NCBI GenBank assembly: GCA_036436775.1
Contig: GCA_036436775.1_3676.1
Reading direction: 5' to 3' (one strand)
DNA from: a phage
DNA: 64,000 nucleotides
This document shows, piece by piece, positions 3,727 through 46,606 of the stretch. The notes below the pieces were generated by a model that did no database searches, was not told the origin of the DNA, and worked only from the letters and a program-made list of their open reading frames with translations. Numbering within the stretch: position 1 is the stretch's first letter; every line of letters begins with the position of its first letter. The translations under genes and the position numbers were made by a program.

Positions 3727-5846
3727 AAGTTGTAAAACGGGACGGTAGAGAAGAGGTCTATAACGGAATTAAGGTGATCAAGGCGGCAGAGTCCGCCTTA
3801 CTTGAGTCTGGGCATACTGAAGAAGAAGCTTACCGGATCGCCTGCGCGGTTAATGAAGTTGTTGCTAACAATCTACCAACCGACCAGTGCACGATCTCTG
3901 TAAAAAATATCCATATCCTTGTTGAAGACGCTCTTATGGATATGGGTTTAAAATGTGCAGCCAGAGAATACATCCAGTATAGGCAGACAAGAGATAATAA
4001 CAGAGAGGCAGGTGGAAAACTGCTTGCAGATATTAGTGGCTTCCTGGATCGCACTTGTGATGAATTTACAAAAGAAAACGCAAATAAGCCTACCAATCAT
4101 GTACACACTCATCGTGACCTGCTTGCAGGCATCCTTAGCAAACACCTTGCATCGACACAGATCCTGCCAGACCGTGTCTCCGAAGAGCACAATAAAGGCT
4201 TCATCCATGTGCATGACCTTGACTATTTGATCAGTCCGTTAACAAACTGTTGTTTAGTAAATTATCCAGATATGTTGGAAAACGGATTCAACATTGGTAA
4301 CGCCCATGTCAGTAAGCCGAAGTCAATAGGGGTTGCAACAACAATCCTTAGCCAAATCTCTAGTGCGGTAGCTAGTGCTCAATATGGTGGTCAGACTATG
4401 AGCCATATTGATCATTATCTGGCACAGTATGCTGAAGCAACCTATGAGAAGAACCTTAAATTTTGCCAGGAACATTGGTTGCCAGATGCTGAGACTGTTG
4501 CAATGCAAATGACAGATAAAGACGTGTTTGACAGCATGCAGACGTTGCTTTATCAAATCAATACGTTAACTTCTGTCAACGGGCAAACTCCATTCATCAC
4601 ATTAAGTTTAGGACTGGATACCTCGGTCTTTGGTAGAATGATTACCAAAAACTACTTGAAAGTCCACAAAATGGGTCTTGGTGAAGAACGTATTACACCT
4701 GTGTTCCCTAAAGTGCTGTTCTTCCTAGAAGAGGGTGTCAACATGAACCCTGGAGATCCTAACTATGATTTGAAACGATTAGCTCTGGAATGCTCTGCAG
4801 AGCGGATTTATCCTGACTTTGTTTCTGTTCCACTAAATCGTAAAGTGACAGGCTCGACAGATGGTAAAGTAACGAGCATGGGTTGCCGGAGTTTTCTTAG
4901 CAAATACAATGACTTGGAAACAGGTGAGGAGAAATACCTTGGCAGATTTAACTTAGGCGTTGTTAGCCTTAACCTGCCAATGATTGCGGCAAAAGCTAAG
5001 ACGGAAGGTGTTGATTTCTTTGCCGTTCTTGACGAGTATCTGGATTTGGCATATGAAGCTCACCTTGTAAGAGTTAACCGTCTAAAAGGAACAAAGGCAG
5101 GGCAGAACCCTATCATGTGGTGTGAAGGCGCTCTTGCTCGCCTGGATCCTGAAGAGAGTATTGATAAACTCTTCTATGACGGGTACGCTTCCATCAGTAT
5201 TGGGTATATTGGTGTGTATGAAACCTGTCAGATTTTGGGCAGAGAGGGTGACAAGGCTTTGGCTCTTGGAATACTTCAGCACATGAGAGATGCTTGTGAG
5301 CGATACAAGAAGGAAAGTAGACTAGCGTTTAGCTTGTACGGCACCCCTTCTGAGAGTCTATGCTATAAAGCTGCAACCTGTCTGGATCGTGAATATCCTG
5401 AAGTGTTGAAGCATGAGCATGAATATCTCACCAACAGTTTCCATCAGCCAGTATGGATAAATAGCTCTCCTTTTGATAAGTGGGAATATGAGGAAGGTTT
5501 TGCTATAATCTCCTCTGGTGGCAACATCGGATACGTAGAGACACCAAATCTGAAAAACAACTTAGATGCTTTAGAGGCTCTTGTTGACTTCGGGTATAAA
5601 CACATTATGTATTTTGGTATTAACCAGCCTGTGGATAAATGTCTTAAGTGCGGATTCTCTGGCGAGTTTAGCGCAACAGCTAAAGGATTTGTATGCCCAG
5701 AGTGTGGAAACCATGAAGAGGGAACGATCAGTGTAATCAGACGTGTATCCGGGTACCTGTCTAGTCCAAACTCTCGTCCTTACAATAAAGGTAAGCAAGC
5801 GGAAGTTATAGAACGGGTTAAGCACTACGGAAGTTGTGGTTGCTGA
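3723..5846 (+). CDS. nrdD: Anaerobic ribonucleoside-triphosphate reductase NrdD (class III)
   Basis: 707-aa ORF; N-terminal ATP cone, Zn-ribbon CxxC...CxxC, C-terminal glycyl-radical motif RRVSGYL; GTG start with GGAGAG RBS. Confidence 0.9.
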   Translation: MKVVKRDGREEVYNGIKVIKAAESALLESGHTEEEAYRIACAVNEVVANNLPTDQCTISVKNIHILVEDALMDMGLKCAAREYIQYRQTRDNNREAGGKLLADISGFLDRTCDEFTKENANKPTNHVHTHRDLLAGILSKHLASTQILPDRVSEEHNKGFIHVHDLDYLISPLTNCCLVNYPDMLENGFNIGNAHVSKPKSIGVATTILSQISSAVASAQYGGQTMSHIDHYLAQYAEATYEKNLKFCQEHWLPDAETVAMQMTDKDVFDSMQTLLYQINTLTSVNGQTPFITLSLGLDTSVFGRMITKNYLKVHKMGLGEERITPVFPKVLFFLEEGVNMNPGDPNYDLKRLALECSAERIYPDFVSVPLNRKVTGSTDGKVTSMGCRSFLSKYNDLETGEEKYLGRFNLGVVSLNLPMIAAKAKTEGVDFFAVLDEYLDLAYEAHLVRVNRLKGTKAGQNPIMWCEGALARLDPEESIDKLFYDGYASISIGYIGVYETCQILGREGDKALALGILQHMRDACERYKKESRLAFSLYGTPSESLCYKAATCLDREYPEVLKHEHEYLTNSFHQPVWINSSPFDKWEYEEGFAIISSGGNIGYVETPNLKNNLDALEALVDFGYKHIMYFGINQPVDKCLKCGFSGEFSATAKGFVCPECGNHEEGTISVIRRVSGYLSSPNSRPYNKGKQAEVIERVKHYGSCGC

Positions 5847-21693: not shown

Positions 21694-21869
21694 CACACAA
21701 TTAGCTGCCCGGCTAAAGTGCTGGAAGCACCTATAACACATCTTTCAACTAAATTTCCCACCACCACAATCACTTACCTCCCACACATGACTGTTTGCTT
21801 GTTTAGTGAGCAGTCATGCCTTGACATTCTTGCCTATCCTGATAAAATTAAGTTCTTCTCTTTTCTTTT

Positions 21870-21895
21870 ACCGAGTAATTCGGGTTTTCTGTTCT
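21870..21895 (+). terminator. Candidate terminator ending the + strand block
   Basis: CCGAG-TAA-TTCGG hairpin followed by GTTTTCTGTTCTCTT. Confidence 0.4.
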
Positions 21896-23189
21896 CTTCG
21901 GTTTGAAGGGGTATGGAGATACACCTGAGTGAACAGGGTGAACAACCGAACCATTGGCTATGGCATTAGCATGGCGAAGCGGACGGGTGACGAAAGAGGG
22001 GCCGGAGGACACCAGTCACTGCCATATGATATATGGGTGATAACCTGAAGAGTCTGAATAAGTGTTTAAGTACCAGTCAGAGGAAAAGGTGAATGGTAGC
22101 CGAAGGGGGAGGGGGGGTTACCTGCTTCTGTAAACATGCATCTGAAATACTACTTTAGATAACCTGAACCTGCCTTTCTGACAAATATTCCCTATTAAAC
22201 TTGAATTATTTATAGAAAATACCACAACACCACTTAAGTCTTTGATTTTACACACAAATCCTACAGATATTCACCTTCCATATTTAACATACTTGTAACA
22301 TATCTATACCTAACCTGTCCGATCAACTCCCCCACCCACATCCTCCATATTTTCCCTGTCTGTACCACCCCTGCCCCGCCGGGAGTCCCGTCATATCTGG
22401 CTTTCCAGCAAATATCACACCCACAAATATCATTGCCTGAAGAGGGTTTCATCCCATAATACATGCCTTACCTGAAGAGCGCTTCATATACCCAGTAAAT
22501 TTTTTAATTGACCCCCCTCCCAGCCGCCGGAGGGGTTGGCTTTTCCCACACAGACCTGAAGAGTCAGCCAGAAATATCTGAAGAGGTCCAGTTATGCCAC
22601 GATTTTGTGCTTGTCCTACAGGAGTGCTTCCCTGTCAGGAGCCGGTAGCGACTGGAGTGCTGCCAGGCGGACGAAATGGGAATCATTCTCATTCTTATAA
22701 CAATTCTCAAATATCGAGGCAGTGAGGCAAATTAATAGGTGAGGCCGTTCACACAGTGGCACAACATTTGCAACCTATCTTTTATGGGTGAATGAGAATA
22801 CCTATCATTGTGAGAATAGTTATCATTACGGGCAATTTAACATAATACCCATTATGCGCACCACTGGCGATACATACAGGGATTGATAACATGAGTTACT
22901 GTTTACACACATAACAATTATATTTCTTACTATTTGTGTGGGATATAGTTAGCAGCCGATAGATTAGATATTGACCTGCAGGCTTCCAACCGTCCAGACG
23001 TCTAAACGCCCACACAACAAGGATTATACATACAACACTGAATGTAAACAGGGCCGCAAAAATGCTACCATACAAGCTTGTAAATTTTTCATGCAGCACT
23101 TGACAAAGAGGAGAAAAACTTGTCTGACACAATATGACTTAATTGCCACAACATGACACTTTTGCACACCTGATTGTTTGCATGTCTAA

Positions 23190-23554
23190 TAGTTTACATA
23201 GATAACTGTTCACATACTTATCATTTACATGATTGACTGTTTACACAAAGATGATAAGCCATGCCATTCGTTTGCATGACAATAATTAACTGGTTTGCAA
23301 TTAACAAGTTAATAATCTTTCACTGGCTATGCCAGGTGACCTTTGGTCACACCTTCGGGTGTTTCTATGACATAATATAAAAGCAGGGCAACTATTAGCA
23401 GATATATAGTTGCCTTGCTTGTTATGTCATGATTAACTAAATACAAGGCAACTATGATCTGGTTAATAGTTTGCAGACAAACTATCACGGGGGTGATGGT
23501 TACTGCTTTTATATTATGTCGCGACTCCGTCGCGCCATGCCATTCGTTTGCATA
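23190..23554. repeat. Iteron/palindrome cluster (candidate origin or regulatory region)
   Basis: TGTTTACA-type iterons 23193-23250; 20-bp direct repeat GCCATGCCATTCGTTTGCAT at 23258 and 23535; 18-bp perfect inverted repeat at 23369-23386 / 23504-23521; GGCAACTAT palindromes between. Confidence 0.6.
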
Positions 23555-24172
23555 GTTGCCTTATTGTTACATATAAAATAATTGTATTGTTAATTATTTC
23601 TTATCTTTCTCTTAGTCATCTAATGATTCCAGTCAGTATAGTAATGTACAGTAAACATTAGACGACTAAAGATTTATATGCTTATAATAACTTACAGTGA
23701 CAATTTCGGACTGTTTACGAAAAATGTTGACACCTGAGCTGATTTATGTTATGCAGTTTACACGAATAATTATTTTATGCAGGTATTGACTATTCCGTTA
23801 TTCTATGGTCGGAATAAATACTTAGCAGACTATAGAATGGTGACGCTACGTGAATTCTGGAATTTAGTGGCTATAGTTATACCCGATTTTTCACGTAGAA
23901 CACGCTTTTGTGGTTATGTAAGTGTATGACTTATAAAGATTTTTAGTTGTTGACAAGACACTGAAGATATGCATCAGGTTAAATTTTGTGCAATAGCGGC
24001 ATTACGTGCAATTTTGGAAGGAAAAACGTGTAAAAATGGCCCTGCTACCACACAATGAAAGATTATGCAATAGCTATTTTACATGTATATTTGTACAGTG
24101 TGTGGGATTGATGGCTAGTCAATTATTCCACTTGCAGGCTGGGCCGTTTGTGGTAGGAGAAATACAGACAAA

Positions 24173-24207
24173 AAGAAAGGGGCCTTTTAAAGCCCCTGAT
24201 AGTTTAG
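24173..24207 (-). terminator. Rho-independent terminator ending the - strand small-gene island
   Basis: On - strand AGGGGC-TTTAAAA-GGCCCCT followed by TTCTTTTTGTCTG. Confidence 0.65.
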
Positions 24208-24215
24208 TTAAGAAA

Positions 24216-25097: not shown

Positions 25098-25370
25098 TTA
25101 CTTACGGCGGCAGAATTCAAGCGTTTTTAATTGATAATCTTCTTCGGCCTGGAGAACAACCGCCTCGATCATTTGGTTGGCGTTATCGAATCCGTATCCT
25201 CTGGCGAACTCATCAGCACCGCCTTTATGGTTGTATTCTGCGTTCATCGCTTCCACAAAATGGAATTCAAGATTATTGAGGTAAGGGCTTGATGTTCCGT
25301 CCTCTTTTTCGATGAGATCCCAAATAGCATTAAAACGTGATTCGACTTCTTGATTAATCCAGCTTGACAT
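25098..25370 (-). CDS. Hypothetical acidic protein
   Basis: 90-aa ORF; RBS AGAGAGGAAAACATC. Confidence 0.6.
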   Translation of the reverse strand: MSSWINQEVESRFNAIWDLIEKEDGTSSPYLNNLEFHFVEAMNAEYNHKGGADEFARGYGFDNANQMIEAVVLQAEEDYQLKTLEFCRRK

Positions 25371-25589
25371 GATGTTTTCCTCTCTTCTGGTTGTTGTGTT
25401 GGCACTTTTGCCCCTTCAAGATAATGTTACCCCACCCCCCTGGCAGATGTCAACGGTTTTTATAGTTCCTATATGACAGGCAGGTCCGGTGGTTGTCTCC
25501 CCCTGTTCCCAAGTGCCGCCCGTTTAATAAGAATAGCAAAAGGGGCCGAACAAGTCAACCCCCAAAATAAGTACCAAAACACTTTTTAT

Positions 25590-32986: not shown

Positions 32987-33106
32987 TTAAAAATTTAAGA
33001 AAAATTTTGCAAAACTGTTAGCGCTACTCATCAACATTTGCGCCAGGATGTACCCAATGATGCAAACGATGATGGTTACCTTTGTGTGCTGGCGTGTAGT
33101 GCTCAT
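32987..33106 (-). CDS. Small membrane peptide (39 aa)
   Basis: ATG with AAAAAGGAGG RBS; TM helix; not in ORF track. Confidence 0.45.
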   Translation of the reverse strand: MSTTRQHTKVTIIVCIIGYILAQMLMSSANSFAKFFLNF

Positions 33107-33140
33107 CTTCAAGCCTCCTTTTTAGCTTAACTGGGATTAG

Positions 33141-33185
33141 TTTACTTTATTGATGGCCCTGGAGTCAAGGCCATCTAAAAATAAA
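33141..33185. repeat. 45-bp exact repeat, copy 3
   Basis: Identical to 28795-28839; starts 2 nt after the stop of the 33187-33582 gene. Confidence 0.9.
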
Positions 33186-33186
33186 C

Positions 33187-33582
33187 TTAGTAAGTTTTCA
33201 GTACTTTCCCGTCCAGTCTGTCAAGCTGGATCTCGATAGCTGCAGAAAACCTATTATAAACCACATCGCCCATGGAGTCCAGCCAATCTATGACGTTATA
33301 CACCTGCTCTTTGTTCTTGCAAGTCCGGATCCGTTTCATTACGTAAGACGGATCAATATTAGTGCTCTCGTTGTTGTGGTCATGCGCCTGGCCTGCTGCA
33401 TTAGTTATAGATTTTACAACCACCTGAAAGGGCTTTAAGGTGCCTTTTGCGTTCATCTCACGCGCTTTTGCGGCGCGGTTGTTATATGTTACACAACGGC
33501 GGCAAATGTTGACTAAATGCATATCAATAATTTTTTCATCGTTTGCCAGTTCGTTCATGATGCGGCGTACGTTCTTATTCAT
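33187..33582 (-). CDS. Hypothetical protein
   Basis: 131-aa ORF with AAAGGAAAAAGATC RBS; 5'UTR hairpin GGCGGGAA-TGT-TTCCCGCC. Confidence 0.6.
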   Translation of the reverse strand: MNKNVRRIMNELANDEKIIDMHLVNICRRCVTYNNRAAKAREMNAKGTLKPFQVVVKSITNAAGQAHDHNNESTNIDPSYVMKRIRTCKNKEQVYNVIDWLDSMGDVVYNRFSAAIEIQLDRLDGKVLKTY

Positions 33583-33630
33583 GATCTTTTTCCTTTGTGT
33601 TGGCGGGAAACATTCCCGCCTTTTGTGCCT

Positions 33631-33659
33631 AGTTTACTTTAATTTTGCAGCGTGTCAAT
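33631..33659 (-). promoter_or_regulatory. Sigma70-like promoter TTGACA-N17-TAAACT (- strand)
   Basis: Hexamers read on reverse complement. Confidence 0.5.
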
Positions 33660-33668
33660 AATTTTTTT

Positions 33669-34067
33669 TTATTCGTGGGCGCATGTCACAATGTGCTTTT
33701 TATACCCCAGGTGGGCAGCAAGTGCTGACAAAAACTCATCCTCATAGATCCAGCCGTTGGCAGTGATCCCCATAGCATTTAACGCGCTTTCAAGTGCTGC
33801 ATTGGCCTTATCATAACCGTGACCGCTCGCCTTGCCACCAGTATAACCGTACTTGTTGTTCTTGCTGTCGTGCATCCAAAAGACGCAATAATGAGTGTTA
33901 CCGCTGGAGGCGGCATAATACCGGATCTCGGCTACTTCGTGTAAATTATTATCATCGTCTAGGCCAACCAGATTATAAGCCTTGTAGAATCCCCGCTCAC
34001 GGCGGCAGTTCTTAACATCAGAAAAAGAGAAGTCAGCATTATCAAAATTAAAGGTTGTAGTTTTCAT
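33669..34067 (-). CDS. Hypothetical protein
   Basis: 132-aa ORF with AAGAGGATAAAATC RBS. Confidence 0.6.
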   Translation of the reverse strand: MKTTTFNFDNADFSFSDVKNCRRERGFYKAYNLVGLDDDNNLHEVAEIRYYAASSGNTHYCVFWMHDSKNNKYGYTGGKASGHGYDKANAALESALNAMGITANGWIYEDEFLSALAAHLGYKKHIVTCAHE

Positions 34068-34131
34068 GATTTTATCCTCTTAGTGTCTTTTGTGATTTAA
34101 GTATATTTTGTGTCAGACTACATGTCAATAT

Positions 34132-34329
34132 TTATTTTTTATTAAACCAGTGGTTGATCTGACCTTTTGTCAGGGCGCAACGGTTAAGCTGTTGCAGGGT
34201 ATAGCTATGACCGCGACGAAATTTATAAAGGCCTTGCCCGTTGTTGATGGTTACATCCACCAGGCAAACCACTTGATCGGTGACCACCTGGCGAGTGTTG
34301 CGACGTACTTTGATTCCGTATGCGTTCAT
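34132..34329 (-). CDS. Hypothetical basic protein
   Basis: 65-aa ORF with AAAGAGGATAAAAAATC RBS; promoter TTGACA-N16-TATTCT at 34382-34409. Confidence 0.55.
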   Translation of the reverse strand: MNAYGIKVRRNTRQVVTDQVVCLVDVTINNGQGLYKFRRGHSYTLQQLNRCALTKGQINHWFNKK

Positions 34330-34412
34330 GATTTTTTATCCTCTTTACTAGTTAGTGTGGTGTTGTTCACCTTGTAGGATAAGAATAGCAGGACTCCCCC
34401 GGTTGTCAACAA

Positions 34413-34591
34413 TTATTTTAAATTATTTTTATGATAGAATCCACCTGCCGCCGCCCCTACCAGGTTAACCATCATTTTTTCGTACTCTTCTTTATGTTCC
34501 AACGCTCCCGCCATAGCCTTTTCAACCAGGGCGATAGCCTCAGCGTCATTAATAGCTACATTTTCCAGGGGGGATCATATTACCTTTCATT
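34413..34591 (-). pseudogene. Small gene interrupted by frameshift at a C6/G6 homopolymer
   Basis: Strong RBS GAAGAGGAGG + ATG; frame breaks after 13 codons at CCCCCC; a 1-nt change would give a continuous ~59-aa ORF. Confidence 0.35.
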
Positions 34592-34748
34592 TTTGTACCT
34601 CCTCTTCAATTGTTACCTATCCTACAGTATAGGCCCACCAGGTTTACAAGCCTTCATTCTCTCCTACCTGGTCAGTTAGGTCCTGCCAGGCTGGCCCACC
34701 AGGTTGCAGCGGTTAGTGCATCAGGTTAGAAAAATTTTTTGAAAAGTG

Positions 34749-35010
34749 TTGACAGCGGCCCCGCCAGGTGGCACAATATACCTATCGAAAGGACGGAAGG
34801 CACCGGTGACGGGGGAGACAACCACCGGGGATGGGCGCTGCATAAAATGAGAACGGTTATCATTATCATTTAAAAGTTTATGCAAAAAATCCTTGCTCTC
34901 TTTGTCCTGTGTGATACTATAATAACAAGCCGGGGCAACAGGGGCCGGGAGACAACCACCGGGCCTGCCCGTTATTCTGCAAACGAGAATGATTATCATT
35001 CAAAATTCTA
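34749..35010 (+). ncRNA. Two tandem promoter-associated structured units (candidate small RNAs)
   Basis: Each unit has GC stem-loop with identical 17-nt core GGGAGACAACCACCGGG (34813-34829, 34946-34962) and downstream GAGAAYGRTTATCATT palindrome; first preceded by TTGACA and AT-rich UP-like stretch. Confidence 0.35.
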
Positions 35011-35079
35011 AATGAGAACTCCTCGCATTTAATAAATTTAATTAGCATGCTAATTACCCTCCGTAACAATTTCCTATAA

Positions 35080-35560
35080 AACAATACACCATAAAATTTC
35101 CATATAGAAATTTTAAAAATCCATTTCTGAAAACGAAAAATCGATTTCGTCCCAAAAAATTTCAGGCCGAGAGCCGGAACGATTCCCAGAAAATCCGATT
35201 CAGAAAACGAAAAACAGATCGAGTACTGAGAAATTTATCGAGAAAAGTTTTCAGAAAATCAGAGCCCTGAAATGAAAAGTAGATCGAGTACCTGGAAATC
35301 CGCACCGTGACTTCAAGATAGTGGTTAGATTGTTACCATAGAAGGTCAAGGGTAAGTGGAGGAAGTTCTAGTAGAGGGATGTTAGCATGTGCGAGAAATC
35401 TGTAATGGTGGCCTGGAATATGGTGCAAACGATAGGATGGGTGATTCAGCTTGTCGCGCCCACTCTGAAAAAAATCCATTTTAGTTTTCGATCTATTTTC
35501 TGATTTTCTAAGAATTTTAAAATATCTGGCCCGGTGAAATATCAAAAGGAGGAAATCCAT
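35080..35560. repeat. AT-rich tandem/inverted repeat region
   Basis: About 40-45-bp units around CAGAAAAYGAAAAA...GATCGAGTAC repeated 3x at 35100-35300; AAATCCATTTT at 35100, 35467, 35549. Confidence 0.6.
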
Positions 35561-35605
35561 TTTAGAAATCCCCCTTACACTTGATATGCCAGGAATTTTC
35601 AAGTA

Positions 35606-35935
35606 TCAGCTGTCTTTGTTTTTAGGTTTGTACATGCGCAGAGGTATGGTCTTTGTAACATTCCATTTCCTCAATCCTTCCCAGCTCCAGTTGTGGGCGT
35701 GGTATCCGGTTATGCATGCACTACTGGAGTGATCGTAAGCATAAGAGAACGCTAAGCGCACTAGGTGAGGCCAGTCCTTCCACGGTTGTGGTCCGTAAGC
35801 TTTTCTCCAACACCGACACAAACTAAATGTCTCAAGAATAGGCAGGATAACAAATCCATACACCGCCACCAGAATAGCCAGCGCAATGATTGTCAGGAAT
35901 ACATACCCTGCAGTTGAAACGATGATCTCCGTCAT
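35606..35935 (-). CDS. Membrane-anchored hypothetical protein
   Basis: 109-aa ORF, N-terminal TM, AAGGGG RBS, ATGA overlap with upstream gene. Confidence 0.6.
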   Translation of the reverse strand: MTEIIVSTAGYVFLTIIALAILVAVYGFVILPILETFSLCRCWRKAYGPQPWKDWPHLVRLAFSYAYDHSSSACITGYHAHNWSWEGLRKWNVTKTIPLRMYKPKNKDS

Positions 35936-36129
35936 TTGTCATCCCCTTTCTTATGAATATAGATGTGTGAGCCTGCCTGTATATAAATTTCTCGACCATC
36001 TTCTGAAAAGATGTGGAATACACGGTCACCTTCATACTCGATACGAGATATCTTCATAATAGTTTTTCCACCTGGAATACGGATCTCGTCACCTACAGCA
36101 ATGTTCCATGCGGATTTAAGCTTAAACAT
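35932..36129 (-). CDS. Hypothetical protein
   Basis: Start moved to ATG with AAAGGAGGGTG RBS. Confidence 0.55.
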   Translation of the reverse strand: MFKLKSAWNIAVGDEIRIPGGKTIMKISRIEYEGDRVFHIFSEDGREIYIQAGSHIYIHKKGDDK

Positions 36130-36367
36130 CAGCACCCTCCTTTGGGAACTTAAACTCTGGCATAGCCATATACGCCACAACAGGGTTGTGATCAAAGTAG
36201 AACTGACCGTTAATTATCCCGGTTTTACTCACATAGTTACCAGATCCTGCAAGAACAACCTCGCAAGCTCCGAAATCTACATTGCCATCCTCATCAGCCA
36301 TGGCTACGATATACTTTCCAAGAGGCATGTTTTTAACGCCGTCTACAAATGTCCACTCTGTGTTCAT
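36122..36367 (-). CDS. Hypothetical protein
   Basis: 81-aa ORF. Confidence 0.55.
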   Translation of the reverse strand: MNTEWTFVDGVKNMPLGKYIVAMADEDGNVDFGACEVVLAGSGNYVSKTGIINGQFYFDHNPVVAYMAMPEFKFPKEGADV

Positions 36368-36376
36368 ACTTTACCC

Positions 36377-36709
36377 TTAAGGTAGCCAGTAAACAATCTC
36401 GCCTTTCAGCTTCATGTCGTTTCCAACATAAATTTCCCAGCCATCCATCTTAGCAACTGTAGGCCCAAAGTCATCAGCACCCCTTACCTCTTTCCAGGCT
36501 CCGTAGTCAGGTTGCCAGATATAGAATCCACCTTCTTTGTCCCATGCTCCGTACACTACGTTTAACAGGTTTCCCATTGCAACAATGGTGGGCCGTGGGA
36601 ATAATACATCTACAGATGCGCCACAATTTCGGGTATCTTTTAAGTTGCAATCCCAAAAGATATCTGCCAGTGTGGCGGCGATAGCTTTACGTCTTTCTAA
36701 TGTTACCAT
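36377..36709 (-). CDS. Hypothetical protein
   Basis: 110-aa ORF. Confidence 0.6.
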   Translation of the reverse strand: MVTLERRKAIAATLADIFWDCNLKDTRNCGASVDVLFPRPTIVAMGNLLNVVYGAWDKEGGFYIWQPDYGAWKEVRGADDFGPTVAKMDGWEIYVGNDMKLKGEIVYWLP

Positions 36710-36718
36710 ATATCATAC

Positions 36719-36910
36719 TCACTTGTTGTTAATAAGTTCTAAAACTTTCTGTCTTACTTTGTCAAGGTCTGTTGATTCAAAAACTGTGCGATATCCCCAA
36801 CTTTGCCCATAGGAGTGACTGCAATCTCCGTAACACCATTGCTCAATTTGATAGTATTCAAGGAACGGGTGCTGCCTGACTATGATACCGTCTCGATTAA
36901 AAATTACCAT
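36719..36910 (-). CDS. Hypothetical protein
   Basis: 63-aa ORF with GAGAGGGATAT RBS. Confidence 0.55.
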   Translation of the reverse strand: MVIFNRDGIIVRQHPFLEYYQIEQWCYGDCSHSYGQSWGYRTVFESTDLDKVRQKVLELINNK

Positions 36911-36941
36911 AATATATCCCTCTCTGCTAGTTTATGTTTGT

Positions 36942-36970
36942 ATTATACACCGCAGTTTTCAGATGTCAAC
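36942..36970 (-). promoter_or_regulatory. Sigma70 consensus-like promoter TTGACA-N17-TATAAT (- strand)
   Basis: Both hexamers perfect on reverse complement. Confidence 0.6.
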
Positions 36971-36973
36971 CTC

Positions 36974-37168
36974 TTACAGATTGCTCCAGTACAATCGGCA
37001 TTTACATTTTGGGCAATGAGGTTCTTTTATGTAATAACCGTCAGTCTTTGGAACACTTTTTGGTGCAGTTTTAACATTGTACCTGGTAAAACATCGGAAG
37101 CAGGTTACCTCTCCGATCTGTTGATCGTTGATCCACTCGCCAGAGTAAAGCTCTTTCTTGTTTCTCAT
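36974..37168 (-). CDS. Small Zn-ribbon-like protein
   Basis: Start moved to ATG with GGGAGAGAATT RBS; CFRC...CPKC Cys pairs. Confidence 0.5.
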   Translation of the reverse strand: MRNKKELYSGEWINDQQIGEVTCFRCFTRYNVKTAPKSVPKTDGYYIKEPHCPKCKCRLYWSNL

Positions 37169-43906: not shown

Positions 43907-44182
43907 CAATAGTTCAGGTAGGTCGTTAAGCTACCCCGCACCATTACGTGCATAGCCATACGTTTTCACGTAGGATCGGACCATCTCATATTCCTATGAT
44001 AAGCAACCACAGGAATCCTCCCATTTCGACCGCACTTGCTGGTCTACTTCCTTTCGGAATGGCCTCTGAGCGTTCGCTCTTTTGAGCGCTTCGTTGCGGA
44101 TTACCTTGCCATAAGGTTTAGGCTTCCCGCAGTTAAAGAGGTTATTCGACATAGATTACTCTATGAAGCCACAATGTTATTT
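43907..44182 (-). ncRNA. Candidate 276-nt group I intron splitting the DNA polymerase at motif C
   Basis: Upstream exon ends in U (codon CAT=His); intervening sequence ends in G before GAT GAG; joining gives YHDEYQLQV; internal GACCA/UGGUC pairing; contains stop codons. Confidence 0.5.
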
Positions 44183-46606
44183 ATGGTAATAAATAATACG
44201 GCGAACACCTTCATCGTACCACCCACGCTTCACCATTTGGTGGTGCATGAGTATCCCAACTAAGTCACACAGCGATGCACCACCATTCTGTTGGTATGCA
44301 TTAAGTAAAGAGTGTTTAGATCGGGTCCAGATAGCATGACCATCAAAAGAGTAGATAAACTTCTTACCAGTTGCTTCCCAGAATTTCTCCAGATCCTCTT
44401 TGCGCCCCTTAAGACCGGGGTTGGCATCCCAAAGCGCATCGATTACCCTTTGTCCCAACTCTGGAGAGATGTCCAGCATATCTGCAACTTTATCTTTTTG
44501 TGCCCCGTACATAACCCCATACGTGATAGGTTTACCGTCGTTACGGGACACCTCTCTACCTGCTACTTTCGTATATGCCTCAGCATTGTTTTGGTGTGCA
44601 TCTCCGTTACTTACAACATCGTAATACAGGCCGTTGTCGAACTCAAAGGCACCCCAAGCCCCGATAAGCTGCTCTAAGTTGGACCCGTCAATACCGATCT
44701 CAAAGTATCCTGGAGGAACACCCCACAAGCTACGCATCTCTTTACCCATAACCACTTTAGGAGATGGTTTAGGCATGTTTGCACAAATACTGTGTTTCTG
44801 TCTGGAAGTGTTTGTCAGCCCAGAACTTTTAGCAGGAAGCTTATGGTCAATCTTCAAACGTGGGTGATTAAGAAGACCAGTATCAACCTTATCCTCCTTG
44901 ATTGGATCAAGGACCGATCTGCGGTTTCGCAATGATAACCACAAGACGATATCTTTAGCCATCTCTCCGTTCAATTTTTCAAGATTCGGACACAGGTGTC
45001 CAAACGTATCTTTCAGTTGCGGAGAAGTAATAAGTGCTCTGGCTTTTCTACGTATTTTCCCGAATACTTCCTTTTTAATCCTTTCAGAGTTAGGAAAGCT
45101 TCGGAACTTGTGCACAGTTGTCTGGAACTTGGCATCAGTTTTGTTCCAGAAGTTGATAATCAGGTCACAATACTCTGACTCTAAAAGCTCGTCCATATAT
45201 GCATATACTCGTGCATCAACATCCGCATCAGGTAGAGCTTTCTTCTTGCTATCTTTAGTTACATCTTTAGTTCTCCACATTGTCGGTAGCCAGCCAGCAC
45301 TGATCAGATACCGCTTAATGTCGTCCTGATTGCTGATTTTCATAGGTATCTTGCAGTCCGGCATTCGCTTCTGCTGTAGATCACTTATTGCCTGATCCAT
45401 CAGCTCTTTAGGCAAAGGGTGGGGTGTGGAAGTGCCCTTAATATAGCCTCTCAAGAAATCAGCCATCTTATCGGGGTCTTTGCAGCCCATCTCTTCACAC
45501 CATTTTATCCCTATCTTGCTGACATCCCCTGTAGAGGTAAATGCTCGCTTAGGCGGGGCTTTGAACTCTAAAGCGCTCATGTCTACAGGATAGCCAAGCT
45601 TATCTTTTAACCATTTCCAACCATTATTAGAGATTGTCCCGTCTTGGTTAAACGGCTTTTCAGGGAACTTGGGCCGCTGAGACATTGACAGCTCTTTTAA
45701 AGGCAGCTGTGGTTCAACACGATCAGCGATTTCTTTCATCCACGCATCGCAACGGTCACGTAAAGCAATAGCTCCATCTATGTCGAAGTATACACCCTGA
45801 CGGGCCTGCAGCTCCATCAGGAAGTGCTGCAGCATGCCTCGACGTAGTGCGTTCTTCCAGGTGATCTTCTTGAACCCTTTCGGCTTCTCTTTGGCTGGAT
45901 CGTACATAAAGTTCTGCATGTCAGATTTGCCGTAGAATACACCTTTTGATTCCGCTACCAGCTCTTTCCAGAGCAGCTCCTGGATGATAACGTCCTCGAA
46001 TACACGATCCACATACTTCCACAACGGAAGATCGCGCCAGTCATCAATTTGAACTTTCTGGTTACCAAGGGCGTAGCCCCATGCCATAAGGCCGTGAGGA
46101 CCAACGGGCTGCATTTTCTTAGTAACCGGGTTGAATACAGAATCCGGACAACCTTTTGGTAAAGGGCGATCAGGCCACAAGATTCGGCTCATCGCCAACG
46201 TATCAAACAGATTAACCTGGTGGTCGTTGATAGTCCCCATACACTTAGGGTCACGGAACATATCAAAATGAATACCGGATAATCTTTCCATCAGCATAAA
46301 GTCATAACTGTAGCAGTTATGGCAGTTCAAAGCTGTTGGTGACCAGTCAGAATTTCCTGTAAGCCAACCTTCCAACTCCGAAAAATCTGCTATGCGAACT
46401 TCAAAATCTTTATAAAGAGTTTTCTTTGCCAGAATAAAGTTCTTAGCCTTCTCTATATCCTCTTCAGAGTAGTGTGTGCGGTCATTTAGAGGAAGGAACA
46501 GCATAAAACGGTTCTTATTCAGCTCTTTAAACAAGCCGCAGTGATAATAAAGATCTAGGTCTTCTAGTAAACCAGAGGCCTCAAGGTCGAAAGACCACAT
46601 ACTCAT
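44183..46606 (-). CDS. Family-A DNA polymerase, N-terminal segment (3'-5' exo domain, palm/fingers, motif B)
   Basis: FDLEASGL exo motif; Pol-A motif B KPITYGVMYGAQ; ORF runs into stop 8 codons past the point where motif C is expected; AAGGAGAACTGTAT RBS. Confidence 0.85.

Follow-up and report, generated by a model that had tools for sequence, protein, structure and literature searches.

A promoter-proximal leader element shared by large lytic phages and its possible role in a transcription-coupled origin or control module of an rV5-like coliphage

In the stretch of 64,000 nucleotides analysed here (the window), which belongs to an rV5-like coliphage (Vequintavirus), two tandem units in the island at 34.6-35.6 kb (units 1 and 2) and a solo unit at 25.5 kb (unit 3) are copies of one promoter-proximal leader element. 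Judged from sequence comparison, the units are copies of a widely conserved element located just after predicted strong early promoters in many large lytic phages and usually directed into a repeat array that resembles a replication origin. The best reading of the island, put forward tentatively and with less than even confidence, is that it holds a transcription-coupled origin or control module. It is more probable that units 1 and 2 belong to such a module than that they are free-standing small RNAs; a preliminary description of this DNA had proposed them as candidate small RNAs.

The region 34400-35700 is 92-96% identical to the corresponding regions of rV5-like coliphages (Vequintavirus: FFH2, EdH4, rV5, and others). 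The ORF-poor island within it (34600-35600, approximately 1 kb) is flanked by small genes that are all on the minus strand, and the short ORFs placed over it differ between annotators. The longest ORF annotated over the units is antisense and encodes 92 amino acids (rV5 ORF198, FFH2 ORF179, phrog_14993). In comparisons with relatives, its differing codons are mostly non-synonymous (3/4, 9/10, and 8/10) and no third-position bias is observed, and the ORF is disrupted in a close relative, L070. Because of these observations, the island is regarded as non-coding, and ORF198 is not under coding selection. The gene-free character assigned to the region at the outset therefore stands, the overlying ORF failing a test for purifying selection, and a coding explanation for the units is rejected. 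The PHROG match of ORF198 (phrog_14993) is a mere copied annotation. A search of IMG/VR with a flanking protein gave two close relatives only.

The 17-mer GGGAGACAACCACCGGG is found at 34813-34829 and, in identical form, at 34947-34963. The identity of the two copies and the first position agree with the preliminary description, whereas the second copy had been placed 1 nt too early (34946-34962). A third copy, GGGAGACAACCACCGGA, with one mismatch is present at 25485-25501 on the minus strand. Three matches with up to three mismatches are thus found in the window, against 0.05 expected, and a profile search by nhmmer detected no further copies in the window. All three copies lie downstream of sigma70-type promoters on the same strand, each at approximately +20 to +45 relative to the promoter. 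The features of the island and of unit 3 are listed in Table 1.

Table 1. Positions of sequence features around the three leader units in the window
Feature	Position	Strand	Basis or detail
CCAGGT box 1	34632..34644	+	GGCCCACCAGGTT; direct-repeat family D3
CCAGGT box 2	34693..34705	+	GGCCCACCAGGTT; direct-repeat family D3
A/T-rich UP-like tract before P1	34727-34748	+	sequence
Promoter P1	34749..34777	+	TTGACA-17-CACAAT with TG, 10/12 matches (promoter scan)
CCAGGT box 3, in P1 spacer	34758..34770	+	GCCCCGCCAGGTG; repeat family D3, promoter scan
Unit 1 leader (core 34813-34829)	34785..34848	+	nhmmer E = 0.0096, partial match
Fur-box-like sequence 1	34849..34871		GAGAACGGTTATCATTATCATT; 15/19 matches to GATAATGATAATCATTATC (4 mismatches)
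Promoter P2	34893..34920	+	TTGCTC-16-TACTAT, read from sequence; overlapping TATAAT at 34918-34923
Unit 2 leader	34928..34984	+	nhmmer E = 6.8e-7
Unit 2 parts	core 34949-34960; tail 34966-34971		core GAGACAACCACC, N5 GGGCC, tail TGCCCG, then TTATTCTGCAAAC
Fur-box-like sequence 2	34985..35003		GAGAATGATTATCATTCAA; 14/19 matches (5 mismatches), perfect 7-1-7 dyad
AT-rich trough right after unit 2	35000..35150		27% GC; composition profile
Degenerate third Fur-like box	35010..35029		AAATGAGAACTCCTCGCATT; repeat family D2
Palindrome in AT-rich trough	35039-35056		TAATTAGCATGCTAATTA; sequence
Three iteron-like units	35113-60, 35187-234, 35252-299	+	repeat family D1
Iteron core	35219 and 35284	+	TCGAGTAC; 3 occurrences in 64 kb
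Inverted partial iteron copies	35483..35527	-	inverted repeats I3-I5
Second promoter, between unit 3 and gene 25098-25370 (-)	25424..25453	-	TTGACA-18-TAACAT, CCAGG in spacer
Unit 3, solo "C-type" copy	25461..25532	-	nhmmer E = 5.3e-7
Unit 3 parts	core 25499-25488	-	core GAGACAACCACC, N5 GGACC, tail TGCCTG
Terminator-like hairpin overlapping unit 3 promoter	25530..25563	-	promoter TTGACT-17-TATTCT

The promoter of unit 1, with its TTGACA hexamer, is recovered by the promoter scan and is preceded by an AT-rich UP-like stretch, as had been described. P2 is weaker than P1 and falls under the threshold of the scan; in relatives, the sequences aligned with it are clear promoters (TTGCAA/TTGATC...TATATT/TATTAT, e.g. 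TTGCAA-17-TATATT). The promoter association claimed for both units is thereby confirmed, for P1 by the scan and for P2 by this alignment. The three units differ in completeness and setting. Unit 1 is a partial family member that covers the first part of the profile only, without the TGCSYG tail, and its homologues are confined to Vequintavirus relatives. Units 1 and 2 are directed away from all genes, and read-through from them would give only antisense RNA from 35606 onwards. Unit 3 lies in an early operon rich in terminator/promoter cassettes. Such cassettes are known from T4-type phages as PeSLs, and unit 3 resembles them in that a terminator hairpin located between small early genes contains its promoter, whereas PeSLs, to our knowledge, lack the GAGACAAnCACC leader.

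The consensus of the family is GAGACAAnCACC-N5 (N5/6)-TGC(C/G)(C/T)G, with a variable G-rich 5' arm and a C-rich N5. Unit 2 and its downstream box are 72-86% conserved across distant genera in BLAST comparisons, namely Phapecoctavirus, Justusliebigvirus, Seunavirus (PVP-SE1, GAP31), Mydovirus, Certrevirus, Henunavirus, Aeromonas phage 2L372D, and phage Av-05. The distribution of unit 3 is comparable, with homologues in rV5, phAPEC8-like and phi92-like phages, Certrevirus, and A5-4. A scan of IMG/VR with the consensus pattern added promoter-proximal copies in Pseudomonas Nankokuvirus (Ab03, KPP10, PAK_P3) and in unrelated viral contigs of 27, 42, 84, 87, 94, 183, and 328 kb; the invariance of the pattern positions in these members is partly by construction, as they were chosen by pattern, and the upstream promoter and downstream repeats lie outside the query. 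The family is thus present downstream of promoters in Vequintavirinae, Stephanstirmvirinae, and PAK_P3-like Pseudomonas phages, and the conserved segment is found in phages of Escherichia, Klebsiella, Erwinia, and Pseudomonas. Absence of the hairpin from relatives, together with a lack of stable transcripts, had been named as an outcome that would refute the small RNAs; the core is kept across subfamilies and hosts. Across members, approximately 25 to 47 nt separate the core from the -10 hexamer, and this variability fits a transcribed element rather than a phased operator. In an uncultured phage, L163, two tandem promoter-plus-element units precede the iterons, as in the window.

No account of the element, of its association with iterons, or of Fur-box arrays in lytic phages was found in Rfam or the searchable literature. 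Searches of Rfam gave no relevant match for 33000-37000 at E <= 10, no match for the loci of seven relatives at E <= 1, no match near unit 3, and, at the gathering threshold for the whole window, a group I intron elsewhere only. A known RNA family is rejected on the basis of these searches of the window and the relatives' loci. No homologue of the element was found in 5,426 E. coli genomes, and the sole "plasmid" match is an rV5-like genome, so that a host copy or mimic is also rejected. Searching the literature for Fur boxes in lytic phages, for transcriptomes of Vequintavirus, and for iterons or origins of rV5-like phages gave nothing relevant.

The surroundings of the element should also be noted, since their order is shared. 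CCAGG(T) boxes, promoter, leader, Fur-box-like palindromes (in enterobacterial phages), an AT-rich tract, and iterons TCGAG(T/A)ACC follow one another in Vequintavirus, Seunavirus, Certrevirus, Henunavirus, Nankokuvirus, and the uncultured phages L163 and L186. The last upstream CCAGG(T) box of this recurrent module sits inside the promoter spacer, and the module is oriented against the flanking genes. HNH endonuclease genes adjoin it in PVP-SE1, Hena1, and Aeromonas phage 2L372D. In the window, CCACCAGGT boxes occur at 34632-44, 34693-705, and 34758-70, with a weaker one at 34454-66, and 4 of the 22 occurrences of the motif CCAGGT in the 64 kb fall in 305 nt. The repeated upstream motifs (CCACCAGGT) seen at the outset are therefore real, and CCAGG is found upstream of family members at 1.16 compared with 0.28 per 260 nt. 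PAK_P3 has equivalent GCCAGGT boxes and a promoter spacer arranged alike, TTGACAcgCCAGGTccgtCCTGGCATTCT.

Downstream of the leaders, GAGAACGGTTATCATT is located at 34849-34864 and GAGAATGATTATCATT at 34985-35000, the latter holding the perfect 7-1-7 palindrome GAATGAT-T-ATCATTC; a palindrome-like sequence after each unit (GAGAAYGRTTATCATT) had been pointed out correctly. These sequences resemble the Fur box, whose E. coli consensus is GATAATGATAATCATTATC and which is represented by the iucA site GATAATGAGAATCATTATT. The likeness lies in the AATGAnnATCATT core, the dyad symmetry, and the arrangement of one to four overlapping or adjacent boxes in arrays. Arrays of 1-4 such sequences with the consensus AAATGAGAATGATTATCATT occur in enterobacterial lineages and L169, whereas the boxes are absent from non-enterobacterial family members. 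Downstream of family members, Fur-like boxes reach 4.9 per kb compared with a background of 0.02 per kb, an approximately 250-fold enrichment. Unlike Fur boxes over -35/-10 hexamers, the predicted phage boxes do not overlap the promoters and lie at approximately +60 to +80 and beyond, that is, 60-80 nt or more downstream of the -10 hexamer. They are putative sites for host Fur or, conceivably, for a phage protein of similar specificity.

The iterons are the most distal part of the module. TCGAG(T/A)ACC repeats lie at +160 to +450 and are absent from nearly all upstream controls, and the iteron core follows the element in PVP-SE1, Certrevirus, PAK_P3-like phages, L163, and L186, TCGAGTACC being common to the window coliphage and PAK_P3. 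Repeat arrays downstream of B-type members contain 5-8 copies compared with approximately 3 in controls. The TCGAG core is absent from the Stephanstirmvirinae members. Solo copies (unit 3 and the copy in L181) have no iterons and lead to short repeats or palindromes followed by a second promoter and a gene; the element is therefore not origin-specific.

The preliminary description had placed the identical core in the loop of a hairpin with covarying stems. This does not hold for the stems, since the 3' arms CACCGG and CCGGGCC fall inside the identical core or directly border it. The difference between the units is confined to the 5' arms, each of which pairs with the conserved segment in its own register, so there is no compensatory change at homologous pairs. 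Each member can be folded with the G-rich 5' arm paired to the C-rich N5 and tail and with GAGACAAnCA in the loop, and the minimum free energy structures are less regular than the simple hairpins first drawn. The predicted folds of unit 1 (-15.6 kcal/mol, z -0.75) and unit 2 (-20.4 kcal/mol, z -0.31), like that of unit 3 (z -0.35), are no better than those of dinucleotide shuffles. RNAalifold gave no consensus stem for a MAFFT alignment of 25 elements because the 5' halves fail to align. A permutation analysis, which asked whether the upstream region of each lineage prefers its own N5, gave no significant covariation, as 355 of 2000 permutations reached the observed value. The folding and covariation analyses suggested as checks on the hairpin thus give z-scores of -0.3 to -0.75 and a non-significant permutation result. 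No strand asymmetry in fold stability is observed, the sense strand being better in 12 of the 28 lineages (p = 0.8). On the other hand, the core is enclosed by its real flanks to a greater extent than by shuffled ones in 22/28 lineages (mean z 0.64), and it is unpaired more than in shuffles in 21/28. On the promoter strand, several substitutions among relatives lead to G-U pairs instead of mismatches, such as GGG/CCC to GGG/CCU and, opposite CGCTAT, ATAGCG to ATGGCG in the alignment. What survives of the conserved-loop hairpin is a tendency of the core to lie between complementary G-rich and C-rich flanks. The hairpin potential around the conserved loop is real; the folding, covariation, and strand-asymmetry tests do not establish a structure of the leader at the RNA level.

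PAK_P3 is the one relative with published transcriptomes. Its module lies between gp80 and gp81 on the minus strand at approximately 50.6-51.0 kb. The RNA-seq-based annotation contains an early antisense RNA of low coverage, as16, immediately upstream on that strand, and no small RNA at the element. PAK_P3 sRNA1, sRNA2, and the ncRNA in the primase 5'UTR were considered as the element and rejected, as they are unrelated sequences and none contains it.

Several explanations of these observations have to be weighed. If the units encoded trans-acting small RNAs, a short RNA from each promoter would expose the loop GAGACAAnCA(CC) as a seed or protein-binding site for a conserved host RNA or protein. 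The strong promoter ahead of each unit, which is conserved in relatives, and the presence of several copies per genome suit such RNAs, as does the conservation of the loop-like segment across phages of four host genera, which is expected for a conserved host target. The core is also predicted to be unpaired more than in shuffles in most lineages, as given above, and the tail is often followed by a U-rich sequence (CUUUUC, UCUUUUG, UUAUUCU), making weak termination or processing conceivable. However, the terminator scan detects no intrinsic terminator on the plus strand in 34300-35700; with none after either unit, a discrete small RNA would therefore have no defined 3' end. Complementary targets in the window are at chance level, E. 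coli lacks a homologue, and the fixed linkage to downstream iterons or Fur boxes is left unexplained. The reading is weakened by the missing terminator and by the absence of an annotated transcript at the element in PAK_P3, a phage whose ncRNAs were annotated from RNA-seq. The candidate small RNAs retain their promoters and their conservation but find no support in the terminator scan, the structure tests, or the PAK_P3 annotation, and we consider them unlikely. A DNA-level element such as an origin, which had been named at the outset as an outcome that would refute them, is at least as likely, because of the conserved downstream AT-rich tract and iteron array. A cis-acting leader RNA, that is, an attenuator or pause site or a put/nut-like antiterminator that sets read-through of downstream repeats or terminators, is likewise improbable. 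It would account for the position of the element, which is always promoter-proximal and on the transcribed strand, for the location of unit 3 among terminator/promoter cassettes, and for possible roadblocks after every copy (Fur boxes, TGATAG-N7-CTATCA, iterons); a GC-rich hairpin followed by a moderately U-rich tract also fits. Lambda nut and HK022 put are antitermination sites, and the three copies per window after early promoters recall them as short structured elements present several times per genome just downstream of early promoters. Yet no boxA/boxB or two-stem put architecture is recognisable in the phage element, and two of the three copies in the window lead into no genes; read-through from units 1 and 2 would give only antisense RNA. 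No Rfam family matches, the structure tests are weak, and the scan finds no intrinsic terminator or attenuator (GC hairpin plus U-tract), the tract after the tail being only moderately T-rich.

A purely DNA-level site, such as a variant iteron, an operator for an iteron-binding protein, or a nick or priming site in a hairpin loop, is judged quite unlikely. Models for such a loop are the double-strand origins of rolling-circle replication and the G4-type primase sites, and CTG directly follows the hairpin on its 3' side. The former (pMV158, geminivirus, circovirus) carry a conserved loop in a GC-rich hairpin with adjacent iterons, and the phage element shares with this anatomy a conserved loop between variable complementary arms and nearby direct repeats. 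The equal fold stability of the two strands is what a DNA inverted repeat would show, the start of the core, (C/G)GAGAC, resembles the iteron core CGAG(T/A)AC(C), and the HNH endonuclease genes beside the module in the three phages named above would also be compatible. In contrast to rolling-circle origins, however, the element is tied to a promoter, its stems are irregular, and no HUH Rep gene is identified; the stems are so short and irregular that cruciform extrusion is unlikely, and the strict orientation and variable but always short promoter distance indicate that transcription is part of the function. Finally, non-functional duplicated intergenic sequence, or a remnant of a tRNA or other gene, is extremely improbable. 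One public record, OY978796.1, annotates tRNA-Met and tRNA-Ile on the homologous block, but ARAGORN finds no tRNA, and no cloverleaf, in the window, OY978796.1, or relatives, and a tRNA remnant is rejected. Divergence of the flanks contrasts with conservation of the element in different subfamilies and hosts, and this pattern effectively refutes a non-functional sequence.

A transcription-coupled origin or control module remains our preferred, if tentative, reading. Two features expected of an origin are observed: a promoter that reads into an AT-rich tract (P1 by the promoter scan, the tract by the composition profile) and a direct-repeat array conserved in relatives. A switch in compositional skew at the module is not observed; the GC skew of the window has no turn at 35 kb and turns only at approximately 21 and 60 kb, together with gene orientation. 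The paper describing rV5 names no origin and reports skew changes that coincide with changes in gene orientation. Against an origin, the hairpin is thermodynamically unremarkable and strand-neutral.

In the preferred module, host RNA polymerase would fire from the module promoters, against the neighbouring genes, into the AT-rich tract and the iterons. The leader, as nascent RNA or as displaced non-template strand, would fold, with the conserved segment ending up looped and CTG following it. The folded leader may then be a recognition or processing point that couples transcription to the initiation or control of replication, and it might serve as a primer or an R-loop, or work by transcriptional activation, in the manner of T4 oriE/oriF or the T7 primary origin. 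In enterobacterial lineages, host Fur may gate or block the transcript at the Fur-like boxes. At the solo copy, the leader would act as a 5' cis-element before the short repeats and the second promoter.

This scheme has counterparts among known origins. At T4 oriF and oriG, promoter transcripts serve as R-loop primers, and oriE combines an early promoter with evenly spaced iterons, which themselves have no proven role (PMC3016281). The module is similar to oriE, oriF, and oriG in that an early-recognised promoter sends a non-coding transcript into the (here putative) origin (PMC3016281). It differs from them in that there is no sequence similarity and that the leader motif, the CCAGG boxes, and the Fur-like boxes are added. 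The T7 primary origin consists of the tandem promoters phi1.1A/1.1B followed by an AT-rich region, and two tandem promoters are likewise aimed at an AT-rich tract in the module. As with the ColE1 RNA II primer, the fate of the transcript as a primer could depend on the structured leader. Unlike T7 and ColE1, the module has host sigma70 promoters together with iterons, and a primer role is only a candidate. By analogy, the module would work like known promoter-driven, iteron-bearing origins, with its own leader motif and accessory boxes.

A more specific proposal, which is possible though rather doubtful on sequence grounds, is that the module is the lytic replication origin or the master early control locus common to rV5-like, PVP-SE1-like, and PAK_P3-like phages as well as several uncultured large phages. 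The hand-off from RNA to DNA would be marked by the leader, and in enterobacterial phages recruitment of host Fur would link initiation to iron status, or amplified phage DNA would titrate Fur. For rV5-like, PVP-SE1-like, and PAK_P3-like phages, which are widely used in phage therapy and biocontrol, neither an origin nor an early control locus has yet been defined, and the module gives a concrete place for mapping replication initiation. With the element, RNA and DNA motif libraries gain a new sequence family, and spurious ORF and tRNA annotations carried through more than 100 genomes are removed. The module may also provide an engineering handle, for origin-dependent plasmid amplification or conditional replication, and it suggests a possible tie between host iron regulation through Fur and phage development.

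A second conserved promoter-driven block, here called RNA-A (GCCACCCCACGGCGAAAAGGCGGGGCTAAC...GCCAGGTCGGAAGGTGGATCGCCGGTAGTTCG), is observed in relatives (L003, locus-internal positions 1290-1430, and loci L144, L145, L146, L147, and L148), where some 100 nt separate it from the downstream element that corresponds to unit 2, the second of the tandem promoter-leader elements. A small plus-strand CDS (DUF7170 in PVP-SE1 gp201) comes before RNA-A. Rfam gave no match for RNA-A. In the window, there is at most a diverged counterpart, if any, at approximately 34655-34725. The annotations of tRNA-Ile and tRNA-Met in OY978796.1 (10891-11044; L002 1420-1573) coincide exactly with RNA-A plus the unit-2-type block, and ARAGORN detected no tRNA in this segment.

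The CCACCAGGT boxes upstream of unit 1 (34632-34644 and 34693-34705) correspond to AACCTGGTGGGCC on the minus strand. The minus-strand reading, CCTGGTGG, differs by one base from the Chi octamer GCTGGTGG.

The labels of some related records should be noted. CP057073.1 (17159-17761; PLSDB), deposited as a 137.5-kb E. coli 'plasmid', shares 92% identity with window 34740-35340 over the full length and most likely represents the genome of an rV5-like phage entered as a plasmid. Some 16-22 GenBank records (MG0656xx) titled 'Campylobacter phage' (host C. jejuni) show 93-98% identity to this coliphage region, and are probably mislabelled or contaminant assemblies.

Upstream of unit 3, the solo copy of the leader element, a sigma70 promoter has its −35 hexamer within the loop and 3' arm of a terminator hairpin (25530-25563, minus strand). 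This terminator/promoter cassette, which separates small early genes, is conserved and also present in L140, L152, L154, and L155. It recalls the PeSL cassettes of T4-type phages. Elsewhere, a group I catalytic intron (Rfam RF00028) is found at 43957-44192 on the minus strand (E = 4e-14; 64.7 bits, with the gathering threshold at 50).

A 2.4-kb stretch without ORFs (21830-24210), at which both GC skew and gene orientation switch, is the counterpart of the 'non-coding' block 104013-106618 in the rV5 paper, which gives no explanation for it. The PVP-SE1 counterpart (L150, ~3760-3900) carries a promoter, a GAAACAAACACC...GTGCC element, and a Fur-like box.

Repeats and Fur-like boxes in the ORF-free stretch and in other viruses
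Feature	Location	Remark
CTGAAGAG repeats	window 21830-24210	five copies
TTGACA/TTTACA-type motifs	window 21830-24210	many
Fur-like boxes (putative)	window 22672-22696 and 22794-22830	inside ORF-free 21830-24210
GAGAATGATTATCATTC arrays	IMG/VR loci L014/L041, L025, L066/L098, L092, L104, L106, L169	

The Fur-box-like 17-mer GAGAATGATTATCATTC forms tandem arrays with a period of ~29-45 nt in unrelated viral contigs. Since such arrays recur there, Fur-box arrays may be a general and hitherto undescribed trait of phages of Proteobacteria.
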